From a virus, in the IMG/VR virus record IMGVR_UViG_3300012351_000007, positions 1-64,000 of that record: a stretch of 64,000 bases of DNA. One strand, written 5' to 3'. The notes beneath the pieces are model-generated. The model saw nothing but the letters and a program-made list of their open reading frames with translations. It had not been told where the DNA came from and did no database searches. Within the stretch, counting starts at the first letter, position 1, and each line of letters starts with the position of its first letter. This document shows positions 1,924 through 54,865 of this stretch, one piece after another. The position numbers were made by a program, and so were the translations under genes.

Positions 1924-4445
1924 TCCTCAACCTCGCCCCGTGGCGGCGTGTCGCGAAGGACCCGGCGCCGGCCGCCGAGCTGGCCTTGACCGAGGTCGTC
2001 GGGCACCTGACGTTCACCGGCGCCACAGTGACCGCCTGGTACCGGCTGCCCGAGCAGGTGTGGGCGTTCCGCGGCGACCCGGACCGGGAGGGCCTGCTGG
2101 CGGCGGTCGCCGCCCAGTTCGCCGGCCTAGTGGGGCACCGGCTGCACCTGCGCCGCACCACCCGCCCGTTCCCGGTCTGCGCCTGGGACGACATGCAGCG
2201 GGCCGCCAACCCGGCCCCGCTGCCGCCCGGGATGCCATGGGAGCGGCACCTGTCCACCGCCGTTGAGCACCTGCTGGCCGGCGGCCACACCCAGGGGCAT
2301 GCCCTGTTGGGGGTGACGTTCGCCCGGCGGCGCATCACCGACACCCTCGGTGGGCTACGGCGCCGCCGCCCGGCGGCCGGCGACACCGAGGTGGCGCGGC
2401 TCACCGAACGGGTGGGCGTCTTCGATGACATGCTCGCCGGCTACGGCCTGGCCGCGGTACCAGCCTCCGCGGAAGAGCTAGCGTGGCTGCTGTACCGGTC
2501 GGTCGGCCTCGGCCTGGACCCGCCGCCGCACGTACCGGGCAGCCTCGACCCGGGTGACATCCTCGCCCTGACCGAGCGGGTCGACCGGTACCGCGACCGC
2601 TACGGCGCCACCACCCGCCTCGTTGACCGGGTCACCGGGCAGGAGTCCCACGTCGCGGTCCTGACCGTGGGCCGCATGGAGGACCAGGAGATTCCGCAAC
2701 TGCACGACCCGTGGTTGCACCTGGCCGACCAGTTGCCGTGGCCGGTGGAAACCTCATCGCGGGTGGACGTGCTGGACCCGTCCGCGACCTCGGGCCGCAT
2801 CAACCAGCAGCTGCTGCTGATCCGCTCGCAGCAGCGGGACTGGCGCCAGCACGACCTAGACGTGCCGGAGTCGCTGCACCGCCTCGCCGACCGGGCCCGC
2901 GACGTGAGCGACCAGATTGACACCGGTCGGCCCGTTGACGCGACCCGGGTGCATGGCTGGCACCGGCTGGCCGTCACCGCCCCGACCGAGAAGGAATGCC
3001 TGACCCGGGTTGACGAGACGATCCGCCTGTACGCCCAGCGGGCCCGGATCGACCTGCGCCACCCCAAGCACCAGGACCGCCTCGGCCGCGAGTTCATCCC
3101 CGGTGAGCCGATCGCCAACACCGGCTACCTGCGGCGCATGCCGGTAGGCATGTTCGCCGCCGCGCTGCCGCAGGCCGCCGCGATCGTCGGCGACGGCCAC
3201 GGCGACTACATCGGCCACACCGCCGGCGCCGGCCGCCGGCCGGTCCTGTACGACCCGCACTTCCCGATGCAGGTACGGGAACGGTCCGGGCTGGCCGTGT
3301 TCGTCGCCGAACCCGGCGGTGGCAAGTCCACCCTCATGGGGGCGCTGGGCTACCTGGCGGCCCGCCGGGGGGTGCAGGTCACCCTGCTCGACCCGTCCGG
3401 GCCGCTGGGTCGGCTGGCCGAGATGCCGGAGCTGGCTGGGCACGCCCGCGTGGTCAACCTGGCCGGTGCGCAGACCGGCACCCTCGCCCCGTACGCCCTG
3501 GTGCCCACCCCACGCCGCCGCGACTTCACCGACGGCCCCGACGGGGACGTCGAGTTCGACACGGCGGTGTCCACCGCGCAGGCCGAACGTAGGTCGCTGG
3601 TGCGCGATTTGTGCATGATGCTGCTGCCGCCGCAGACGGTACGGCTGTCCGAGCCGGTGACCGCGCTGCGTAACGCGCTGCGCCAGGTACCGGCCGACGA
3701 GTCCACCGCCCTCGAGGACGTCCTGGACCAGCTCAACATCGACGGCGACGCCGGTGACGTGGACGCGAAGAGCGTGGCCAACCTGCTTGGCGACGCCGCC
3801 GAGCTGCCCCTGGCCCGGCTGTTCTTCGGCCACCCACCGGCGGGCATGCTCACCACCAACGCCGCGTTGACCGTCATCACCATGGCCGGTCTGCGACTGC
3901 CCGACCTGGGCATCGAACGCGAGTACTGGTCCACCGAGGAATCCATCGCGCTGCCGATGCTGCACCTGGCGCACCGGCTCGCGGTGCGCCGCTGCTACGG
4001 CGGCGACATGCACGCCCGCAAACTGGTCGGCCTCGACGAGGCGCATTTCATGAACGACTGGCCGTCGGGGCGGGCGTTCCTGGTGCGGCTGGCCCGGGAC
4101 TCCCGCAAGTGGAACATCGCCGGCCTGGTCGCCTCACAGAACCCGAAGGACATCCTCGGCCTGGATGTGCAGAACCTCGTGTCGACGGTGTTCGTCGGAC
4201 GCATCGCCGAAGACGCCGACATCGCCGCCGAGGCGCTGCGGCTGCTGCGGGTGCCGGTCGGCGCCGGCTACGAGCAGACCCTGGCCACGTTGTCGCAGGT
4301 CGCCGCCGACTCCACCGACCGGCTCGGTTACCGCGAGTTCCTGATGCGTGACGTCGAGGGTCGCGTACAGAAGATCCGCGTCGATGTGTCGTGGGCGCCG
4401 GACCTGCTCGACCGGCTCAACACCACCCCTGGAGGTGCCCGGTGA
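1920..4445 (+). CDS. VirB4/TcpF-like conjugative ATPase (AAA_10 type)
   Basis: Walker A AEPGGGKST, LLDPSG, Walker B LVGLDEAH, RDSRKWN..ASQNP; ~840 aa. Confidence 0.85.
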   Translation: MILNLAPWRRVAKDPAPAAELALTEVVGHLTFTGATVTAWYRLPEQVWAFRGDPDREGLLAAVAAQFAGLVGHRLHLRRTTRPFPVCAWDDMQRAANPAPLPPGMPWERHLSTAVEHLLAGGHTQGHALLGVTFARRRITDTLGGLRRRRPAAGDTEVARLTERVGVFDDMLAGYGLAAVPASAEELAWLLYRSVGLGLDPPPHVPGSLDPGDILALTERVDRYRDRYGATTRLVDRVTGQESHVAVLTVGRMEDQEIPQLHDPWLHLADQLPWPVETSSRVDVLDPSATSGRINQQLLLIRSQQRDWRQHDLDVPESLHRLADRARDVSDQIDTGRPVDATRVHGWHRLAVTAPTEKECLTRVDETIRLYAQRARIDLRHPKHQDRLGREFIPGEPIANTGYLRRMPVGMFAAALPQAAAIVGDGHGDYIGHTAGAGRRPVLYDPHFPMQVRERSGLAVFVAEPGGGKSTLMGALGYLAARRGVQVTLLDPSGPLGRLAEMPELAGHARVVNLAGAQTGTLAPYALVPTPRRRDFTDGPDGDVEFDTAVSTAQAERRSLVRDLCMMLLPPQTVRLSEPVTALRNALRQVPADESTALEDVLDQLNIDGDAGDVDAKSVANLLGDAAELPLARLFFGHPPAGMLTTNAALTVITMAGLRLPDLGIEREYWSTEESIALPMLHLAHRLAVRRCYGGDMHARKLVGLDEAHFMNDWPSGRAFLVRLARDSRKWNIAGLVASQNPKDILGLDVQNLVSTVFVGRIAEDADIAAEALRLLRVPVGAGYEQTLATLSQVAADSTDRLGYREFLMRDVEGRVQKIRVDVSWAPDLLDRLNTTPGGAR

Positions 4446-16336: not shown

Positions 16337-17724
16337 CGGTCATCTCCCAGGAGACCCCCGGCTTTAGCCGTGGGGAGGAATGGGTGTTCGGCTTCAGCAG
16401 CGACGTACGGTCCTGCTAAACTTGTGTCGTGAGGACGGCGTACAAGTGTCGGGCGTACCCGACCCCCGAGCAGGCGGCGGTGTTGAGCCGCACGTTCGGG
16501 TGTGTGCGCCTCGTCTGGAATCGCACCCTGGCGTGGCGGCACGCCCGCTGGTACAGCGAGAAGCTGTCGACCAACGTCCCAGCGGCCAACGCCTACCTGA
16601 CCGAGTTGAAAGCCGACCCGGACCTTGCGTTCCTGCGCGAGGTGTCGTCTGTGCCGTTGCAGCAGGTGACCCGCATCCAGCAGAAGGCGTACACCAACTT
16701 CTTCACCGGCCGCGCCCGCTACCCCCGGTTCAAGTCCCGCACGGGACGGCAGTCCGCCGAGTACACCCGGTCCGGGTTCCGGTGGCGCGACGGCCGGCTG
16801 TGGCTGGCGAAGCTCGACGCCCCGCTGGCGATCGTCTGGTCGTGGCCCGAGGTGGACCCGACCAGCATCGACCCGTCCACGGTCACCGTGTCCCGCGACC
16901 TGGACGGCCGCTGGTACGTGAGCCTGGCCGCCGACGTGGACGACCCCGACCCACTGCCGGCCACCAGCCGCACTGTCGGTGTGGACCTCGGCATCACCGA
17001 CTTCGCCGTCACCTCCGACGGTGAGCGCATCGCCAACCCCCGGCACCTCGAACGCCGGGCACGGAACCTCGCCCGCTATCAACGCCGCGTGGCCCGCTGT
17101 AAGAAGGGCTCCGCGAACCGGGGCAAGGCCAAGGCGAAGGTCGCCCGCGCTCACCGGAAGGTCCGCCACGCTCGGCAGGACTTCCTGCACCGAGCCAGCA
17201 CCAACCTGGTCCGCCGGGCCGACACGATCGTGGTCGAAGACCTCAACATCGCAGGCATGGTCCGGCGGCCGAAACTGGTTCCCAACGGTGACGGCACCTA
17301 CGCGCGAAACGGGGCCGCCGCGAAAGCCGGGCTGAACAAGTCCATCCACGATGTCGGCTGGGGCGAGTTCTGCCGGCAGTTGGCGTACAAGGCTGAACGC
17401 GCCGGCCGCACCGTGGTCGTGATCGACCGGTGGTTCCCGTCGAGCAAGACCTGCTCGACGTGCGGGTACCTGCTCGCCAAGCTCTCCCTTTCGACCAGGG
17501 CATGGACATGTCCAGGTTGCCGCACCCGGCACGACCGGGACCTCAACGCGGCGAAGAACATCGTGGCGGCAGGTCTTGCCGTGGTCAGGGAGAAAGACCC
17601 TGGCTATGCCTGTGGAGGTGACGTAAGACCTGTGCGGGCAACCGCCAGGCGGACGCCGGTGAAGCAGGAAACCCAACCTGTGAAGGTTGGAATCCCCCGC
17701 CTTTAGGCGTGGGGAGGAAGTCAA
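16337..17724 (+). mobile_element. IS200/IS605-family tnpB-only element (IS1341-like)
   Basis: Follows TCAT; LE guide GAGA + hairpin CCCCCGGCTTTAGCCGTGGGG; RE GAAT + hairpin + GAGGAAG-TCAA; no tnpA. Confidence 0.85.
16429..17706 (+). CDS. tnpB: RNA-guided endonuclease TnpB
   Basis: AYKCRAYPTPEQ, FGCVRLVWN, RuvC VGVDLG / VVEDL / DRDLNAA, Zn finger CSTCG..CPGC; catalytic D-E-D intact. Confidence 0.95.
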   Translation: MRTAYKCRAYPTPEQAAVLSRTFGCVRLVWNRTLAWRHARWYSEKLSTNVPAANAYLTELKADPDLAFLREVSSVPLQQVTRIQQKAYTNFFTGRARYPRFKSRTGRQSAEYTRSGFRWRDGRLWLAKLDAPLAIVWSWPEVDPTSIDPSTVTVSRDLDGRWYVSLAADVDDPDPLPATSRTVGVDLGITDFAVTSDGERIANPRHLERRARNLARYQRRVARCKKGSANRGKAKAKVARAHRKVRHARQDFLHRASTNLVRRADTIVVEDLNIAGMVRRPKLVPNGDGTYARNGAAAKAGLNKSIHDVGWGEFCRQLAYKAERAGRTVVVIDRWFPSSKTCSTCGYLLAKLSLSTRAWTCPGCRTRHDRDLNAAKNIVAAGLAVVREKDPGYACGGDVRPVRATARRTPVKQETQPVKVGIPRL

Positions 17725-39018: not shown

Positions 39019-40916
39019 CAGCGACGACCTCCCGCCGCGACGAGCGCCGCATCGCTGCTCATCCCAAGACGTTTGAACGACTCGGCGAGGCTGGTCTCGA
39101 ACTGCTTCGTCGCGTCCGGGCCAGCGGTGCCGGCGCCCAGGCCGGCGCCCACTCCGGTTACCCGGCCGTCCCCGGCGGCCTCCCGCAGCGACGCCACGTA
39201 GGTTTCCTCCGCCTTCGCCGCCTCGGCGACCGCGGTGCGGAACGTCGCCTCGTCGAGGCGCAGCACCTTCACCGCCGCCCCGTCGCGCAACTCGTCGGCC
39301 TCCGCGAGCGGCACATCCCGCACCGCCGCGGCCAACACCCGGTCCCGGGCGGCCAACGGAAGGTTGGACTCGGAAAGGATGCTCGACGCGATCGGCCGGG
39401 CCGCCTCCACGGCGGTCAGCCGGGCCAGCGACTGGCGCATCTCCTGCGCCTCCCGCACAGCGGTGTCGCGTTCCTGCTCGGCCTTCACGCGAGCCTGCTC
39501 GGCTTCGGTGACAGCGGCCGGCACCACGGCGGTGGCCTCGGTTGCCCCCGCCGCACCCGGCGCCGGGCCGGTGTTGGTTCCAGACACGCTGGACTCCTTC
39601 TCGGGTGGGTTGGGTTCGGCCGGCGGGGCGCCGCCCGTGACATCAGTGAGGGGAGGGGGTTCGGTCATCGGCTCGTCGGCCTCGACAAGTCCGGCACCGG
39701 TACAGGCCGGCACAGCGGCCTCGCCCATGCCAGCCATCCGCAGCAGCGACGGCGGCGGGTCTTCTTTCAACTGGGACCGGTACAGGCCGACCAGTTTGCG
39801 GGCGGCGGCCTTCTTCGCATCCGCAGACGCGTTCACCCCGCCCCGGCCACCGGCCAGCGCCGACGCAGCTGCGTGCACCCCGTTGCGGTTGACGGTGCCG
39901 TCGGGCTGCTTGACGGGTAGCTTGTAGCGGTCTTTCGAATCCGGGGAGCCCTGCCCGGTGTCGAGCAGGCATGCCCGCCGGTACTGCTCCGGGGTGTAAT
40001 CCGAGGCCGAGAATTGCGACCACGGGGTGTCGCTGACCTCACTCAGCGACAGAGCGGCCTCGGACACGGCCGTGCCGTCCTCGGGCGGGCCATCGTAGAG
40101 ATCCCTGGTGAAGAGCTGACCTGCATCTTTCTCGACCCGGGCCGTCCACGCCTGCAAGGCGTCGCCGACCGCGTTGGACAGGGTGATCCGCTCATCGCGG
40201 GTCAACTGGCCGTTGCCGTACATCTGGTCCGCGATGTCGGTCAGCGCGCTGTGCAGTTGGGCTTCGATCCAGGCGCCGATGTTGCGCGCCTCCCGGATCT
40301 GCACCCCACCCTCGCGGGCCGCCTCCACCAGGGAGACGAGCTTCCCGCCGGCGCCGGCCTTCGTCACGAAATCCACGGAGTAACCGCGGTCGATGGACTC
40401 GATGACGATCCCCGACCGGTCGCCGACCTTCCCGACCGTGCCGGACCCGTCGCCGCGCACCGACAGGCCGACCGCATCGGCCAGCGCCTCCACCAACGGC
40501 ACGGCGTGGGGGAAGACTTCGATGTCGGCGTACAGGCCATCACCCTCGTAGACGGGGGTGGACACGACGCGGCCGGCGAGGTCGCGGACGGACCGCTCTG
40601 GCCGGTCCGCAGACTCGGCGATCGACGGGTGATCCAGAAAGACCTGCGTGGTCCCCGCGGGCCAGGCCGTAGGGCCATCCCGCTCGAGCACCTTCGCTGG
40701 CCAGTAACCCGACGTCCCCCACCGGTCCCCTTCGATCAGCCGCGCCCGGTACCGTCGCCCACCGGCCGGCGTGAGGCTGCCCATGGTGGCCTCGGCGATG
40801 GCAACCCGCTCGACGGTGGCCGCCGACTCGCGCAGTTGCACCGGAACCGGGAACGCCTTGCCGGGGGGCACCACGGCACCCCAGCCGGGGCGGCGCAGCT
40901 TACGGCGGTTCGACAC
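39018..40916 (-). CDS. Capsid maturation protease-scaffold fusion
   Basis: FLDHP, RSVRDLAG, GLSV, SVDFVTKAGAGG; coiled-coil C-terminus. Confidence 0.8.
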   Translation of the reverse strand: MSNRRKLRRPGWGAVVPPGKAFPVPVQLRESAATVERVAIAEATMGSLTPAGGRRYRARLIEGDRWGTSGYWPAKVLERDGPTAWPAGTTQVFLDHPSIAESADRPERSVRDLAGRVVSTPVYEGDGLYADIEVFPHAVPLVEALADAVGLSVRGDGSGTVGKVGDRSGIVIESIDRGYSVDFVTKAGAGGKLVSLVEAAREGGVQIREARNIGAWIEAQLHSALTDIADQMYGNGQLTRDERITLSNAVGDALQAWTARVEKDAGQLFTRDLYDGPPEDGTAVSEAALSLSEVSDTPWSQFSASDYTPEQYRRACLLDTGQGSPDSKDRYKLPVKQPDGTVNRNGVHAAASALAGGRGGVNASADAKKAAARKLVGLYRSQLKEDPPPSLLRMAGMGEAAVPACTGAGLVEADEPMTEPPPLTDVTGGAPPAEPNPPEKESSVSGTNTGPAPGAAGATEATAVVPAAVTEAEQARVKAEQERDTAVREAQEMRQSLARLTAVEAARPIASSILSESNLPLAARDRVLAAAVRDVPLAEADELRDGAAVKVLRLDEATFRTAVAEAAKAEETYVASLREAAGDGRVTGVGAGLGAGTAGPDATKQFETSLAESFKRLGMSSDAALVAAGGRR

Positions 40917-43005: not shown

Positions 43006-44685
43006 CTACGTGCTCGCTGGCTGGGTCACGGCGCCGTCCGGGTTCCCGTCGGCGGTGGTTCCGTCCCCCGGTGGGGTGTCGGCCCCCGACATTGGCCCTG
43101 TTCCGGCCGTAGCGGGGTCCTGCCCGGTGCGGGCCAGCCCTGCGGCCGTCTGCCCGAGACTGGTAGGCGCGGACGGCCAGATGAAGTTCCCGTCCTCGTC
43201 GACCTGCGCGGCCACCAGCTCATCGGTTCTGGCCACCCCCATCGCCGTCAAAAGCAGCCGCAGGATCTCCTCGGGCCGGACGGTGCCGGTCGAGTCGGCC
43301 TGCACGATCGCCTGCACCAGCGACAGCGGATCCACCGTCGCCAACTCCGGCCAGGTGATGTCGATCGTGTCGGGGGTGTCCCCGTCCAGGATCACCGTTT
43401 CCCGGTCGTTCTCATCCCGCGTGATCCTGCCCTTGAGGGCGCCCTTCGGCGCGCGCACCGACTCGGCGATCACATGGTCGAGGATCGAGCGCAGGAACTC
43501 CGACCACAGGGTTTGGCGTTGCGCCATCTCCAGTTCGGTCGGCTGGTCCAGGGTTTCCGCGGTTGCCCGCGCGCCGGTCTGGCCGGGGTCGGCCAGCAGC
43601 ATCGTCACCGGCACACCCAACGCCGCAGCGACCATCATTGCCAGGGGCCGGCCGGATTCGGCGTCGATGGTGGCACCGGACTTGGGGATGGCCTCCAGTG
43701 ACGCATCGGCCGGCATGATCGCCGTCGCCCCCGACGACAGCGGCAGCCCGGTCGCCGGGTCGATCGACGGCGCAGCGGCTATCTTCGCCCTGGCCTGACC
43801 TGCGGCCTGACCCTTCGCGGTCAACCTCCACGCAAACCGCGACAGCGACTTGACCAGCCTCGCCCAGTCCTCCAGGAACTCCTTGTACGCCTTCGCCCAG
43901 TCGATCGCGGCATACACGTCCGGTACCCCACGGCGCCAGCCCAGCGGCACGTTGACGGCGAGGTGCACGATCGGGGAGTCCCACGCGATGGGGATCCCGC
44001 CGAACGCCGCCGGCCGCTGCGTGGGCCGGTAGCCGACCGCGGGGTAGAACCGTTCCCGCAGCGTCGGGTTCACGGTCCCCGTCTGGTTGTCGAGGGCCAT
44101 CTCGTTCCAGCGGCGGTGGTAGTACCACGGTTCGGTGGCGTCGTCCGGGTTGCAGATCACGTCGGCGATCTCGTCGGCAACCACCGTCCGTGCCTGCACG
44201 GTGCCCGTCAGGGGCTTCGTGAACAGGACCACGAAGATTTCCCCGTCGTGGCCAAGTGCCCGCTCCAACTGCTCCCGCGCGGCCGGACCCGTCACGGCAC
44301 GCCGGTTGCCCCGGTCGTCGAGGAAGGCTTGGATGACCGCGTTGACGTCCTGCTCACCGCTGTTGCGCCCATCGGCGCGGGCGGCGAGCTCGACCCCCTG
44401 GCCATGGACATATGCGACCTTAAGGGACAACCCCCGGCGCACCAATGGGCTCTTCAGGGCGTATATCCGGCATATCGCCCGAAGTTGGCGCAGACCCTCG
44501 GGGCGGAACTCGACCTCGGCCAGCGCTGTGAGTCGCACCCAGCCTGGGTCAAAGAGCTGGCGCTCAAGGTCAACTAGACTTTCCTGGAGCAATTCCACTG
44601 TGGACCGTTCGCGGTCCAGATCCTCCCGCAGTTCCGCCTCGCGCATCTTGCGCTTCGACGGGGCAGCGAGGGCAGGGGTGGACAC
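43006..44685 (-). CDS. Portal protein
   Basis: 559 aa between TerL and MuF; SPLVRRG, DGEIF, RGVPD, ALGVP..L..D....ATA. Confidence 0.85.
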   Translation of the reverse strand: MSTPALAAPSKRKMREAELREDLDRERSTVELLQESLVDLERQLFDPGWVRLTALAEVEFRPEGLRQLRAICRIYALKSPLVRRGLSLKVAYVHGQGVELAARADGRNSGEQDVNAVIQAFLDDRGNRRAVTGPAAREQLERALGHDGEIFVVLFTKPLTGTVQARTVVADEIADVICNPDDATEPWYYHRRWNEMALDNQTGTVNPTLRERFYPAVGYRPTQRPAAFGGIPIAWDSPIVHLAVNVPLGWRRGVPDVYAAIDWAKAYKEFLEDWARLVKSLSRFAWRLTAKGQAAGQARAKIAAAPSIDPATGLPLSSGATAIMPADASLEAIPKSGATIDAESGRPLAMMVAAALGVPVTMLLADPGQTGARATAETLDQPTELEMAQRQTLWSEFLRSILDHVIAESVRAPKGALKGRITRDENDRETVILDGDTPDTIDITWPELATVDPLSLVQAIVQADSTGTVRPEEILRLLLTAMGVARTDELVAAQVDEDGNFIWPSAPTSLGQTAAGLARTGQDPATAGTGPMSGADTPPGDGTTADGNPDGAVTQPAST

Positions 44686-44700
44686 TCGGCACCCCCAGCG

Positions 44701-44880
44701 TCAGTCGAACAGGTCCGGATCGCAGCGGGTACAGCCACCGAAGGCGCCGAGGGGCTGCGGGCCGCTGTCCATCAGGGCGTACACGTCAACGACGAGGCGG
44801 GCCGACGTGAGGCAGCGGTCGCACCACTCCCGACGCGGCTCACCCGTAGCCGTGTGGATGTAGACCACCTGCTCGGCCAC
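44701..44880 (-). CDS. Small CxxC/CxxC zinc-ribbon protein
   Basis: WCDRC...GCTRCD. Confidence 0.5.
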   Translation of the reverse strand: MAEQVVYIHTATGEPRREWCDRCLTSARLVVDVYALMDSGPQPLGAFGGCTRCDPDLFD

Positions 44881-44896
44881 GCCCACCCCTTGCCGC

Positions 44897-45554
44897 TCAG
44901 ACCCGCTCCGGCCAGTGCCACGTGCCGCCGTGGAGTTTGGCCTCGCGCCATCCGCAGGAGCATTGACTTCCTCCACCGCCGTGAACGGCGGGGATTCCCT
45001 CCGTGCTGCGCGTGGAACGCACAACGCCCGGGTGGGTTCCTGGTTCATCGCAGTCCGCCCGGGCAAGCCCAGGTCTTACGTCTACTCCGCAGGCGTTTTC
45101 CGTCTCCGCAAGCCCTGCGGCGACGTTTGGTGCGTCGGGCTCCAGCTTGGTTATCGCTGGAGCCCGGCCGGACGGTACCACAGTCAAGGGCACTGCTCGG
45201 GCCTTGGCGGCCCTCCCAGCGCGGGCCTTCACCCCCGCCCTCAAGGGCGGAGCACTGGCCCGCATCCCGGTAGCGCATGGGGTTGCCGTGGATCTCCGGG
45301 TTCAGGCAGTCGGGTGATTCGGGCTCCTCTGCACCCTCGTCGTACCGGCAGCCACCGGCCGCGAGCGAATGCAGGAAGATGCCCGTCGGGTTCAGTACCG
45401 CCAGGACAACGCGCTCGCCGCCGAGACTGCGCGGCACGCCAAGCTCGACCTCGGTCACGATGGCTGCGCGGCACTCTGACCTGAACTCGCCACCCGGGGT
45501 TCCGAACGAGACATAGTGCACGACGCGGCCGACCGACGGCTGCTGGTCAACCAC
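44897..45554 (-). pseudogene. Paralog of 18059-18361 interrupted by mini-IS
   Basis: Removing 44963-45269 joins ..PMRY to CSCGW..WHWPERV in frame (116 aa). Confidence 0.8.
44963..45269 (-). mobile_element. 307-bp non-coding IS200/IS605 derivative retaining the omegaRNA
   Basis: Follows CTAC; LE guide AGTG + hairpin; tnpB tail remnant (VAAGLAETENACG); RE GAAT + hairpin + GAGGAAG-TCAA. Confidence 0.85.
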
Positions 45555-45565
45555 AGGCGCTCCGT

Positions 45566-47058
45566 TCAGTACAGGCTGATCAGCGCCTCGTCCTCGGTGT
45601 CTTCCTCTTCGAGGACCCGGTCGTCGAGCAGCAGCGGGTTGAGTAGCAGCCGGTTCAACGCCTGCGACATGGCGTCCACCCGGTCATCGTTCGCCGAGAA
45701 GGGGAAACCTGCGCATTCCTCCACAACCTCGCCGACCCACGGGGCCAGTTCGGGGGCCGGCAAGAACACGTTGCCGGCCTGGACGAACGGCGACACGGCT
45801 GCGGCACGGGCCTTCTTCGACCCGTCCGGCTCGACCGGGATCAGCCCGGCGACGGTGCGCCGCAGGGCGTTGACGACGGCTGGGCCGTTGGCCTTGTCCT
45901 CAACGAGTTTCGCGGCAGCCTGCGGCCAGCGGGCCGAAAGCGTACGGACCTTCAGGCAGGTGGTGACGAAGTCCATCCGGTCGTGCACCTGGTCAAGCAG
46001 GTACGCCTGCACGCCACGGCGGCCCCACACCTGCCCGCACACGAAGTCTGTCCCGGCAGAGTCCTTGAAGGTCATATCCCACGAGGCGATCAGCTCATCG
46101 AAACCGACCGCGATCCGGGTACCCTCGTCGCGTTCCGTCCACTGCGGTGTGTCGTAGTAGCGCCACCACTCGCGTTGGAAGATGTTGCCGGCGACCGGGT
46201 TGGGCTTGCCCTGAAACAGGGCCGTCCACGACTCGGCGCCGACTTCCTTCTTCTTCTTCTCCCAGTCGACGACGGTACGGCCGCGGGTGGACTGCATGTA
46301 CTCGCCGGGCTGCCGGCCCAGCGGGTCCGTCTCGCCCTTCTCGGGGCGGTGGTCGGCCTGGGCCGGGATGTTGATGACCCGCCAATGGTCGGGGCCGTCT
46401 TCCTTCAGCCGCCAGCCGGTCAGGTCGTCATGCGTCCAGCGCGTCTGGATGATCACCACGGCGACACCGGGGCCGAGTCGGGGGATCGCCACATCGGTGT
46501 AGAAGTCCTCGACGGTTTCCCGCCACGCCGGGGATTCGGCCGCCTCACGGTCCTTGTACGGGTCGTCGATGATCAGCAGGTCGACGGGGCGGGACGTGAG
46601 CGAGCCACGGATCCCGACGCAGTACACGCCACCCTGACGGCTGGCGATCTCCCACTCGTTCGCCGCCGCCGAGTCGGGGTTGACCGACAGGCCGAGACGG
46701 TCGCCGTGCAGCATGATGTCGTCGCGGATGAACCGGCCCCACCGGCGGGCGACGGTGTGGGCGTAGGACACGATCGCGATGCGGGTGTCCGGGTTGCGGT
46801 GCAGCACCCACTCCGGGAAACGCCGGGAGGTGCGCTGGCTTTTCCCTCCTGAGGCGCCAGGGAGATCATTAACCGTTCGCAGCGGCCCTCGGCCACGTCA
46901 ATCAGCGCCGCATCGATCAGGCCAAGGGCTGGCGTCTGGACGGTACGCGGGTCGAGCGCCCTGGCAAGGTCACCCGGTGTCGGCCACTGCGACACCCGGG
47001 GGCCAGTCGGCTCGAATAGGCGTGCCGCAGCCTCCCACGCGGACAACGTCCCGGTCAT
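45566..47058 (-). CDS. Terminase large subunit, split by a -1 frameshift at 46846-46840
   Basis: Frame 0 RLMISLAPQEGK; -1 frame SQRTSRRFPEW..LLIIDDPYK..IQTRW..SWD..VEDKANG..DDRVDAMSQA. Confidence 0.88.
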
Positions 47059-54816: not shown

Positions 54817-54865
54817 CGGTCAGCTCCCAGGAGACCCCCGGCTTTAGCCGTGGGGAGGAAGTCAA
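54817..54865 (+). mobile_element. 49-bp LE/RE fusion remnant of the tnpB IS
   Basis: Follows TCAT; matches 16337-16380 with one mismatch, then ends GTCAA like the RE. Confidence 0.8.

Follow-up and report, generated by a model that had tools for sequence, protein, structure and literature searches.

A 307-bp insert splits a small gene of the phage packaging module

A small gene between terL and portal in an uncultivated virus is split by 307 bp of DNA, and the locus raises the question of whether this insert is the debris of an insertion sequence or an element that still carries a usable guide RNA. The window analysed here is the whole 64,000-nucleotide stretch, which forms part of an 85.7-kb IMG/VR record (IMGVR_UViG_3300012351_000007). 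A preliminary description, made from the letters alone, had read the insert as a protein-free IS200/IS605 mini-element with intact ends, and our analysis bears this out. On the minus strand, which the gene and the insert share, CTAC abuts the left end of the insert (44963-45269) and TCAA closes its right end (Table 1). The left boundary reads ..CGC TAC | CGGGATGCGGGCC AGTG followed by a hairpin; TGGTACCGT, an 11-bp hairpin, an omegaRNA-like scaffold and GGAAT come next, and the bulged-T hairpin of the right end (RE) leads into GGAAGTCAA | TGC TCC TGC GGA TGG... The flank directly after the RE terminus ..GTCAA is TGCTCCTGCGGATGG.

Joining 45554..45270 to 44962..44897 in silico, with the 307 bp removed, gives a 116-aa ORF, so that the suggested restoration of the reading frame by excision holds for the joined sequence. 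Its tail, ..RY|CSCGW..GGTWHWPERV, agrees with two homologues that run through the junction uninterrupted, one in a Nocardioidaceae MAG (L018, ..HRY-CSCGWIEAQLRGGTWHWPERV) and one in a viral contig (L009, ..FRY-CQCGWIEASPKGGTWHWPERV); GGTWHWPERV also ends shorter homologues of the gene. A search of IMG/VR and genomes with the N-terminal 95 aa of the interrupted gene retrieved homologues at 15 viral and 5 genome loci, and CGCTAC|TGC stands at the codon of homologous genes that corresponds to the insertion point. Agreement with L018 and L009 through the junction therefore fixes the boundaries to the base, and the absence of duplicated bases from the rejoined ORF means that there is no target-site duplication.

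The 413-aa terminase ORF at 45566-46807 (minus strand), with further ORFs upstream to ~47759, covers only phrog_38 positions 331-705 (of 760), and the N-terminal ATPase part must be encoded farther upstream, in a different frame.

Table 1. Features of the interrupted gene and of the 307-bp element, in window coordinates.
Feature	Position	Strand	Basis
Interrupted gene, 5′ part, 95 codons	45270..45554	-	PHROG match (phrog_2293, function unknown)
Interrupted gene, 3′ part, 21 codons and stop	44897..44962	-	in frame only without the 307 bp; conserved tail
Target/transposon-adjacent motif (TAM) CTAC, directly 5′ of the left end	45270..45273	-	sequence; also flanks other left-end copies
Left end (LE), ~85 nt	45185..45269	-	identity to LE of ~1.77-kb tnpA+tnpB elements
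LE DNA guide AGTG, directly 5′ of the LE hairpin	45253-45256	-	sequence
LE subterminal hairpin	45233-45252	-	predicted on the minus strand by folding
Candidate extended -10 box TGGTACCGT (TGn-TAnnnT)	45172..45180	-	sequence; comparison of gene-less copies
Perfect 11-bp GC-rich hairpin, 9-nt loop, at the predicted transcript 5′ end	45136..45166	-	folding
OmegaRNA scaffold, 171 nt, RE included	44963..45133	-	covariance-model match
RE with GAAT guide	44963..44999	-	sequence and folding
RE hairpin with bulged T	44972-44994	-	sequence and folding
RE cleavage tetranucleotide TCAA	44963-44966	-	sequence
Predicted omegaRNA guide segment, flank TGCTCCTGCGGATGGC..	44943..44962	-	directly 3′ of RE, as in known TnpB systems

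The element has the ends of a tnpA-tnpB transposon and none of its genes

Both subterminal imperfect hairpins lie on the same minus strand, and terminal inverted repeats are absent. There is no protein gene inside the 307 bp, the sole coding trace being a TnpB C-terminal remnant in frame 1 (..AAGLAE..ACGVDVRP..). From its ends and this remnant, the element is thus composed of an LE, a short non-coding middle and the last ~165 nt of a tnpB insertion sequence. The first ~81 nt are 90-96% identical to the LE of ~1.77-kb relatives, in which the LE is followed directly by a divergent Y1 tnpA and then by tnpB, and the right-end layout GGAATCC..hairpin..GTCAA is common to all relatives. A degenerate LE pattern located 118 loci (116 genome and 2 viral) in Streptomyces, Micromonospora, Nocardia and MAGs, and CTAC stands at the LE boundary in 103 of the 112 scorable copies. 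The CTAC-bounded LE with guide AGTG and the RE ending in TCAA, both picked out in the preliminary description, are present as described, and the LE family is one that chance does not account for. The RE guide GAAT and the cleavage site TCAA are identical to those of IS608, and the LE guide and target of IS608 (AAAG/TTAC) obey the same rule as AGTG/CTAC here.

The LE tetranucleotide covaries with the target in three families (CTAC/AGTG, TGAC/CAAG and TCAYC/variable), as the IS608 DNA-guide rule predicts. In the related tnpA+tnpB elements L228 and L230 (G082:C202 and G295:C4), the LE follows TGAC and opens with CGGATC.., and its hairpin is preceded on the 5′ side by CAAG/CAGG. BLAST against plasmids found distant tnpB 3′ ends only. 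Soil contigs from the same samples hold further copies of the LE/RE family, one of them with a tnpA-type continuation.

The omegaRNA scaffold is complete

The preliminary description had likened the 3′ part of the insert to the omegaRNA of tnpB elements and had named a covariance-model search as the check. Our training alignment (A2) took in the 3′-terminal 170 nt of 20 tnpB-linked elements and left out the gene-less copies, hereafter minis; RNAalifold assigned it 32 pairs, with compensatory changes in 20 of them. The covariance model built from it (R1) matches the minus strand of the window at 44963-45133 with 143.7 bits (E 7.5e-39) over model positions 1-172, which is the whole model. By comparison, the window's own tnpB omegaRNA, a member of the training set, scores 98.4 bits, and six other gene-less copies score 143-159 bits; the omegaRNA of the insert and that of the window's tnpB element are the only two that R1 finds in the viral record. 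The motifs CCTGCGGAG, GTAAGACC, GAACCAGGAAC and GGAAT can all be read in the insert.

The scaffold has changed in ways that keep its structure. Across the seven minis, a small sample whose alignment was fitted to the model, standard pairs occupy 98.7% of pair cells, six pairs are altered on both sides, and the covariation score was reached by none of 500 shuffles. Nine substitutions are unique to the present copy when it is set against the other minis, and four of these nine fall in pairs in which the partner has also changed so that pairing is preserved, while one terminal pair of a long-range helix is broken (U-G to C-C). Decay without compensation, the sign that the preliminary description had set against its own reading, is thus not seen, the changes particular to this copy being mostly compensated pairs. 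The unpaired motifs GTAAGACC and GAAGCAGGAA, invariant in the tnpB-linked copies, are kept save for one G-to-C change in the present copy. Judged by this comparison of sequences, the omegaRNA scaffold of the 307-bp element is complete and not decayed. Rfam holds no family that reaches threshold over the element, the sub-threshold matches including RAGATH-18 (23.2 bits) and sot0042 (10.3 bits, E 4.3).

A conserved structure at the 3′ end of a mobile element need not be a guide RNA. The 3′ structure of a mobile PATE might serve transposition itself, as single-stranded DNA for TnpA or in second-strand synthesis, and be used by no TnpB: the conserved helices could form in the excised single-stranded circle too, TnpA is needed by the element anyway, and no tnpB-linked omegaRNA more than ~74% identical to the minis was found among the tnpB-linked elements compared. 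However, TnpA of IS608 and ISDra2 requires only subterminal hairpins and the guide and cleavage tetranucleotides, whereas the conserved region here reaches ~125 nt beyond the RE hairpin and agrees position for position with the scaffold that overlaps tnpB 3′ ends. The retention of the invariant unpaired motifs, save for the single G-to-C change, also argues against a role confined to transposition, and we regard such a role as very unlikely.

Minis form a probably old and mobile lineage, mainly in Micromonospora

Scans for the LE and the RE recovered at least nine further gene-less copies of 305-342 bp, hosted by Micromonospora sp. DT47, NBC_00898, NPDC005299, M. zhanjiangensis and one MAG; DT47 alone has four, all with different flanks, and two further minis lie at contig edges. 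At the mini loci examined, the sequence ahead of the omegaRNA gave no match to TnpB. The nearest mini to the window copy is L135, with 84.5% identity across the whole element. In a maximum-likelihood tree of 57 omegaRNA sequences, the eleven minis included form one clade (90/90), within which the window copy has the longest terminal branch (0.11). Minis are 75-95% identical to one another and no more than ~74% identical to any tnpB-linked omegaRNA, the nearest of these belonging to CTAC-type elements (70-74% by structure-guided identities). The four mini-bearing genomes tested have 8-28 R1 matches each, with full-length tnpB among the loci examined, and 4-15 Y1 TnpA matches each.

These features bear, in sequence, the signature of a lineage that is non-autonomous and that outlived the loss of its genes, still moving and with its RNA structure kept. 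The lineage is actinobacterial, mainly from Micromonospora, and has lost tnpA and tnpB; as far as its sequences tell, it retains the two ends that TnpA recognises, a short region resembling a promoter, a 5′ hairpin and a complete omegaRNA scaffold.

The same comparison bears on whether the phage copy is a dead relic, that is, an inert remnant of a full-length insertion sequence whose omegaRNA-like sequence survives only by virtue of a recent deletion and which neither guides nor moves. Such a relic would fit a record in which there is no TnpA and no cognate TnpB, the failure to see an empty allele in the contigs of four soil runs, and a copy with the longest terminal branch of the minis (0.11) and one broken pair. 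Yet the minis are a separate clade spread across several Micromonospora species at 75-95% identity, and the lack of any full-length relative closer than ~74% means that the gene-less state is old. Several copies with different flanks in one genome indicate mobilisation after gene loss, and the substitutions are predominantly compensated. An inert relic is accordingly an improbable account of the insert.

A chimeric origin of the minis, with the LE from the CTAC family and the omegaRNA and RE from the TGAC or TCATC family, was prompted by the maximum-likelihood tree (89/92, with the fork drawn open) and by an RE hairpin that the minis share with TCATC-type elements. The structure-guided identities instead place the minis nearest CTAC-type elements, and a chimeric origin, though it may hold, was not adopted.

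A conserved -10-like box precedes a stable 5′ hairpin

The extended -10 candidate TGnTACCGT singled out in the preliminary description finds comparative support. TGn and TAnnnT are retained in six of the seven aligned minis, the exception being L157 (CAnnnT), while the nnn bases and the surroundings of the box vary; the -10 variants are TACCGT, TAACGT, TATGGT and TAAAAT, with CAAGGT in L157. This conservation of TGn-TAnnnT lends support to a -10 element. A sigma-70 consensus scan of 44600-45700 returned no promoter and no -35 consensus, and such a scan is uninformative for actinobacterial -10-only promoters. No RNA run is listed among the sequencing runs that contain the stretch. The middle segment has no significant similarity to the parental tnpA-tnpB intergenic promoter, with which it shares just a ATAACCAA-like octamer.

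The 11-bp hairpin that had been noted between this box and the scaffold is a perfect stem. Its 10-bp core (45137-45165) has a folding energy of -13 kcal/mol (z -6.4), and the hairpin is also kept in L135, the closest mini. Since the element and the phage operon run in the same direction, read-through could also supply the precursor.

Candidate partner proteins and predicted targets of the guide

No Y1 TnpA is encoded anywhere in the viral record, which has a single TnpB (16429-17706). This TnpB looks intact: its D/E/D motifs can be aligned to those of the designed TnpB-like nuclease 9yyg, and it gives a full-length match to ISDra2 TnpB (8bf8, E 2e-60). Most of the TnpBs with related omegaRNAs linked to them are 37-42% identical to it. 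Instead of CTAC, TCAYC flanks the tnpB insertion sequence of the window (16338-17724) and eight relatives, which upholds the earlier claim that the mini derives from a different member of the family. The omegaRNA of this insertion sequence differs from the mini scaffold in a missing stem-loop and a 24-nt extra insert, with 75% identity over 65 nt. TCATC is the flank in a related tnpB-only family from Micromonospora, whose TnpBs share 48% identity with that of the window and whose RE has the bulged-T hairpin of the minis.

As the sole TnpB on the record, and one that looks catalytically intact, the window's TnpB might itself be the partner, in which case the phage would be a two-guide system, with a protein gene and its own guide alongside another guide that stands alone. 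Core motifs recur in both scaffolds, and the bulged-T RE hairpin links the minis to the TCATC family with its 48% identical TnpBs. Against this, the family of this insertion sequence inserts at TCAYC, so that the donor joint of the mini, which lacks that TAM, would not be an expected substrate of its TnpB. Its own omegaRNA, with one stem-loop absent, the extra 24-nt insert and 75% identity over 65 nt, also departs from the mini scaffold, and no guide match flanked by TCAYC or CTAC occurs elsewhere in the record. A two-guide phage is hence a highly improbable arrangement. With no TnpA in the record and a TnpB of the TCAYC family, the TnpA and TnpB partners of the mini are probably encoded by the host.

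The predicted guide segment doubles as the continuation of the interrupted ORF and occurs without mismatch nowhere else in the 85.7-kb record. With two mismatches, the nearest second site (39733-39748) is flanked by neither CTAC nor TCAYC, and no TAM-flanked second target occurs in the 85.7-kb record. On sequence grounds, the mini guide is predicted to have a single target, the empty allele. The occupied allele is present in contigs of four soil DNA runs, and no contig skips exactly 44963-45269. A lone soil joint (44929 to 45445, side 26) was considered as an excision product and rejected, as it fits a short-form homologue of the gene instead.

A search of IMG/VR for the empty target gave one exact match to CTAC and the following 15 nt, L177 (IMGVR_UViG_3300045283_000155, 2395-2413, minus strand), in an unrelated viral gene that encodes the same peptide, YCSCGW. 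It was rejected as an empty allele, the gene being unrelated and YCSCGW its only similarity to the window; the match may be due to chance or, should the guide be active, mark a potential off-family target.

Proposed mechanism and relation to known systems

Taken together, the insert is best read as a guide-scaffold-bearing PATE, a non-autonomous IS200/IS605 element pasted by TnpA into a phage gene and loading a TnpB of the host, a reading to which we assign a probability of about 0.7. We infer transcription, TnpB loading, cleavage and excision of the mini as follows. A Y1 TnpA acting in trans would have pasted the element 3′ of CTAC in the small terL-portal gene of a (pro)phage. Transcription would start from its own -10 box, arise from operon read-through, or both, and the scaffold with ~16 nt of flank (TGCTCCTGCGGATGGC) would be loaded into a host-encoded TnpB of the CTAC-TAM family. 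The loaded TnpB would cut copies of the gene that lack the insert (CTAC and guide), recombinational repair after the cut would restore or spread the element, and scarless excision driven by TnpA would regenerate the gene.

Meers et al. 2023 (PMC10055086) report PATE-like gene-less IS200/IS605 elements from Geobacillus stearothermophilus and state that omegaRNAs are often encoded by PATEs and depend on a TnpB supplied in trans by a different IS element; a companion paper describes a PATE with IStron ends. For the present insert, an IStron was considered and set aside: a group I intron core was sought in Rfam, and no intron family appeared at gathering or E-value thresholds. Like the G. stearothermophilus PATEs, the insert has the LE and RE of an IS605-family element and no protein gene, its omegaRNA would serve a TnpB encoded elsewhere, and it would be mobilised in trans by TnpA. 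In contrast to them, it belongs to Actinomycetota, has the TAM CTAC and resides in a (pro)phage gene, and the minis have diverged into a separate clade that has a 5′ hairpin and conserves a -10-like box.

The comparison extends to autonomous elements. As in IS608/IS605 of Helicobacter pylori, which moves by Y1 TnpA peel-and-paste, the subterminal imperfect hairpins lie on one strand, insertion is 3′ of a tetranucleotide without duplication, and excision would be scarless; IS608, however, is autonomous (tnpA and tnpB) with target TTAC, whereas the present element is gene-less and its full-length relatives have tnpA divergent from tnpB. In the ISDra2 TnpB-omegaRNA of Deinococcus radiodurans (PDB 8bf8/8exa/8h1j), as is predicted for the family studied here, the tnpB 3′ end and the RE both lie within the stretch that gives the guide RNA, the guide comes from the flank after the RE, and the target is the TAM plus flank, i.e. 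the empty donor joint. ISDra2 RNA is made in cis with tnpB and its TAM is TTGAT, whereas the RNA of the present element stands alone and its TAM is CTAC. Haloarchaeal PATEs and IS1341-type sotRNAs (Rfam RF02656) are likewise gene-less IS200/IS605 derivatives and non-coding RNAs from tnpB 3′ ends, but the insert gives only the sub-threshold match to them and has no detectable sequence relationship.

The idea of a guide-bearing PATE is already published (Meers et al. 2023), and the present element adds to that model without changing it. New here are an actinobacterial lineage of guide-only elements that conserves a -10-like box of its own, evidence for evolution that preserves structure after the coding constraint was lost, and an instance within a phage packaging-module gene. 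It is a clean natural case, exact to the base, of a TnpB guide RNA uncoupled from the nuclease gene, and the comparative evidence suggests that RNA structure stayed under selection once the coding constraint had gone. With several copies per genome and co-resident tnpA/tnpB elements, the Micromonospora lineage is a tractable system for the study of omegaRNA trans-loading, of the matching of LE to TnpB TAM, and of whether guide-only elements are better retained through nucleases that they do not themselves encode. The copy in the phage packaging module points to Micromonospora-like hosts for the uncultivated virus.

A bolder extension, for which there is only an outside chance, is that the gene-less elements are long-lived 'guide-only' transposons that parasitise resident TnpB and TnpA, and that the phage copy is an RNA-guided homing or exclusion device between phages. 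If so, during co-infection or in a lysogen, host TnpB with the phage guide would cut related phages that have the uninterrupted gene (CTAC and TGCTCCTGCGGATGGC), which would be converted to the insert-bearing allele or excluded. Such a device would resemble a homing-endonuclease drive with a nuclease that the phage does not encode.

Other insertion-sequence features of the window

A 48-bp micro-element at 54818-54865 (plus strand) joins the first ~43 nt of an LE of the window's tnpB insertion-sequence family straight to the RE terminus GTCAA. Its LE consists of GGTCAGCTCCCAGGAGA and the hairpin CCCCCGGC..GCCGTGGGG AGGAA; TCATC stands at its 5′ flank, as it does for the full insertion sequence at 16338, and R1 matches it weakly (17.4 bits). 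Its layout suggests either a product of recombination between LE and RE or a PATE of the TCAYC family reduced to the hairpin.

The full tnpB-only insertion sequence (16338-17724, plus strand, 1387 bp) has the target TCATC and an RE reading ..GGAAGTCAA|GTCCG. It is inserted directly upstream of the ATG of a minus-strand membrane-protein-like ORF (MSRWEKYGKTIVAIV..), the start codon of which lies within the complement of the TAM (GATGA), and the LE provides a GGAG-like motif upstream. The Rfam family Sernc389 (Saccharopolyspora sRNA 389) scores 97.6 bits at 16618-17210 on the minus strand, antisense inside the tnpB ORF, and this 'sRNA family' appears to be tnpB-antisense sequence.
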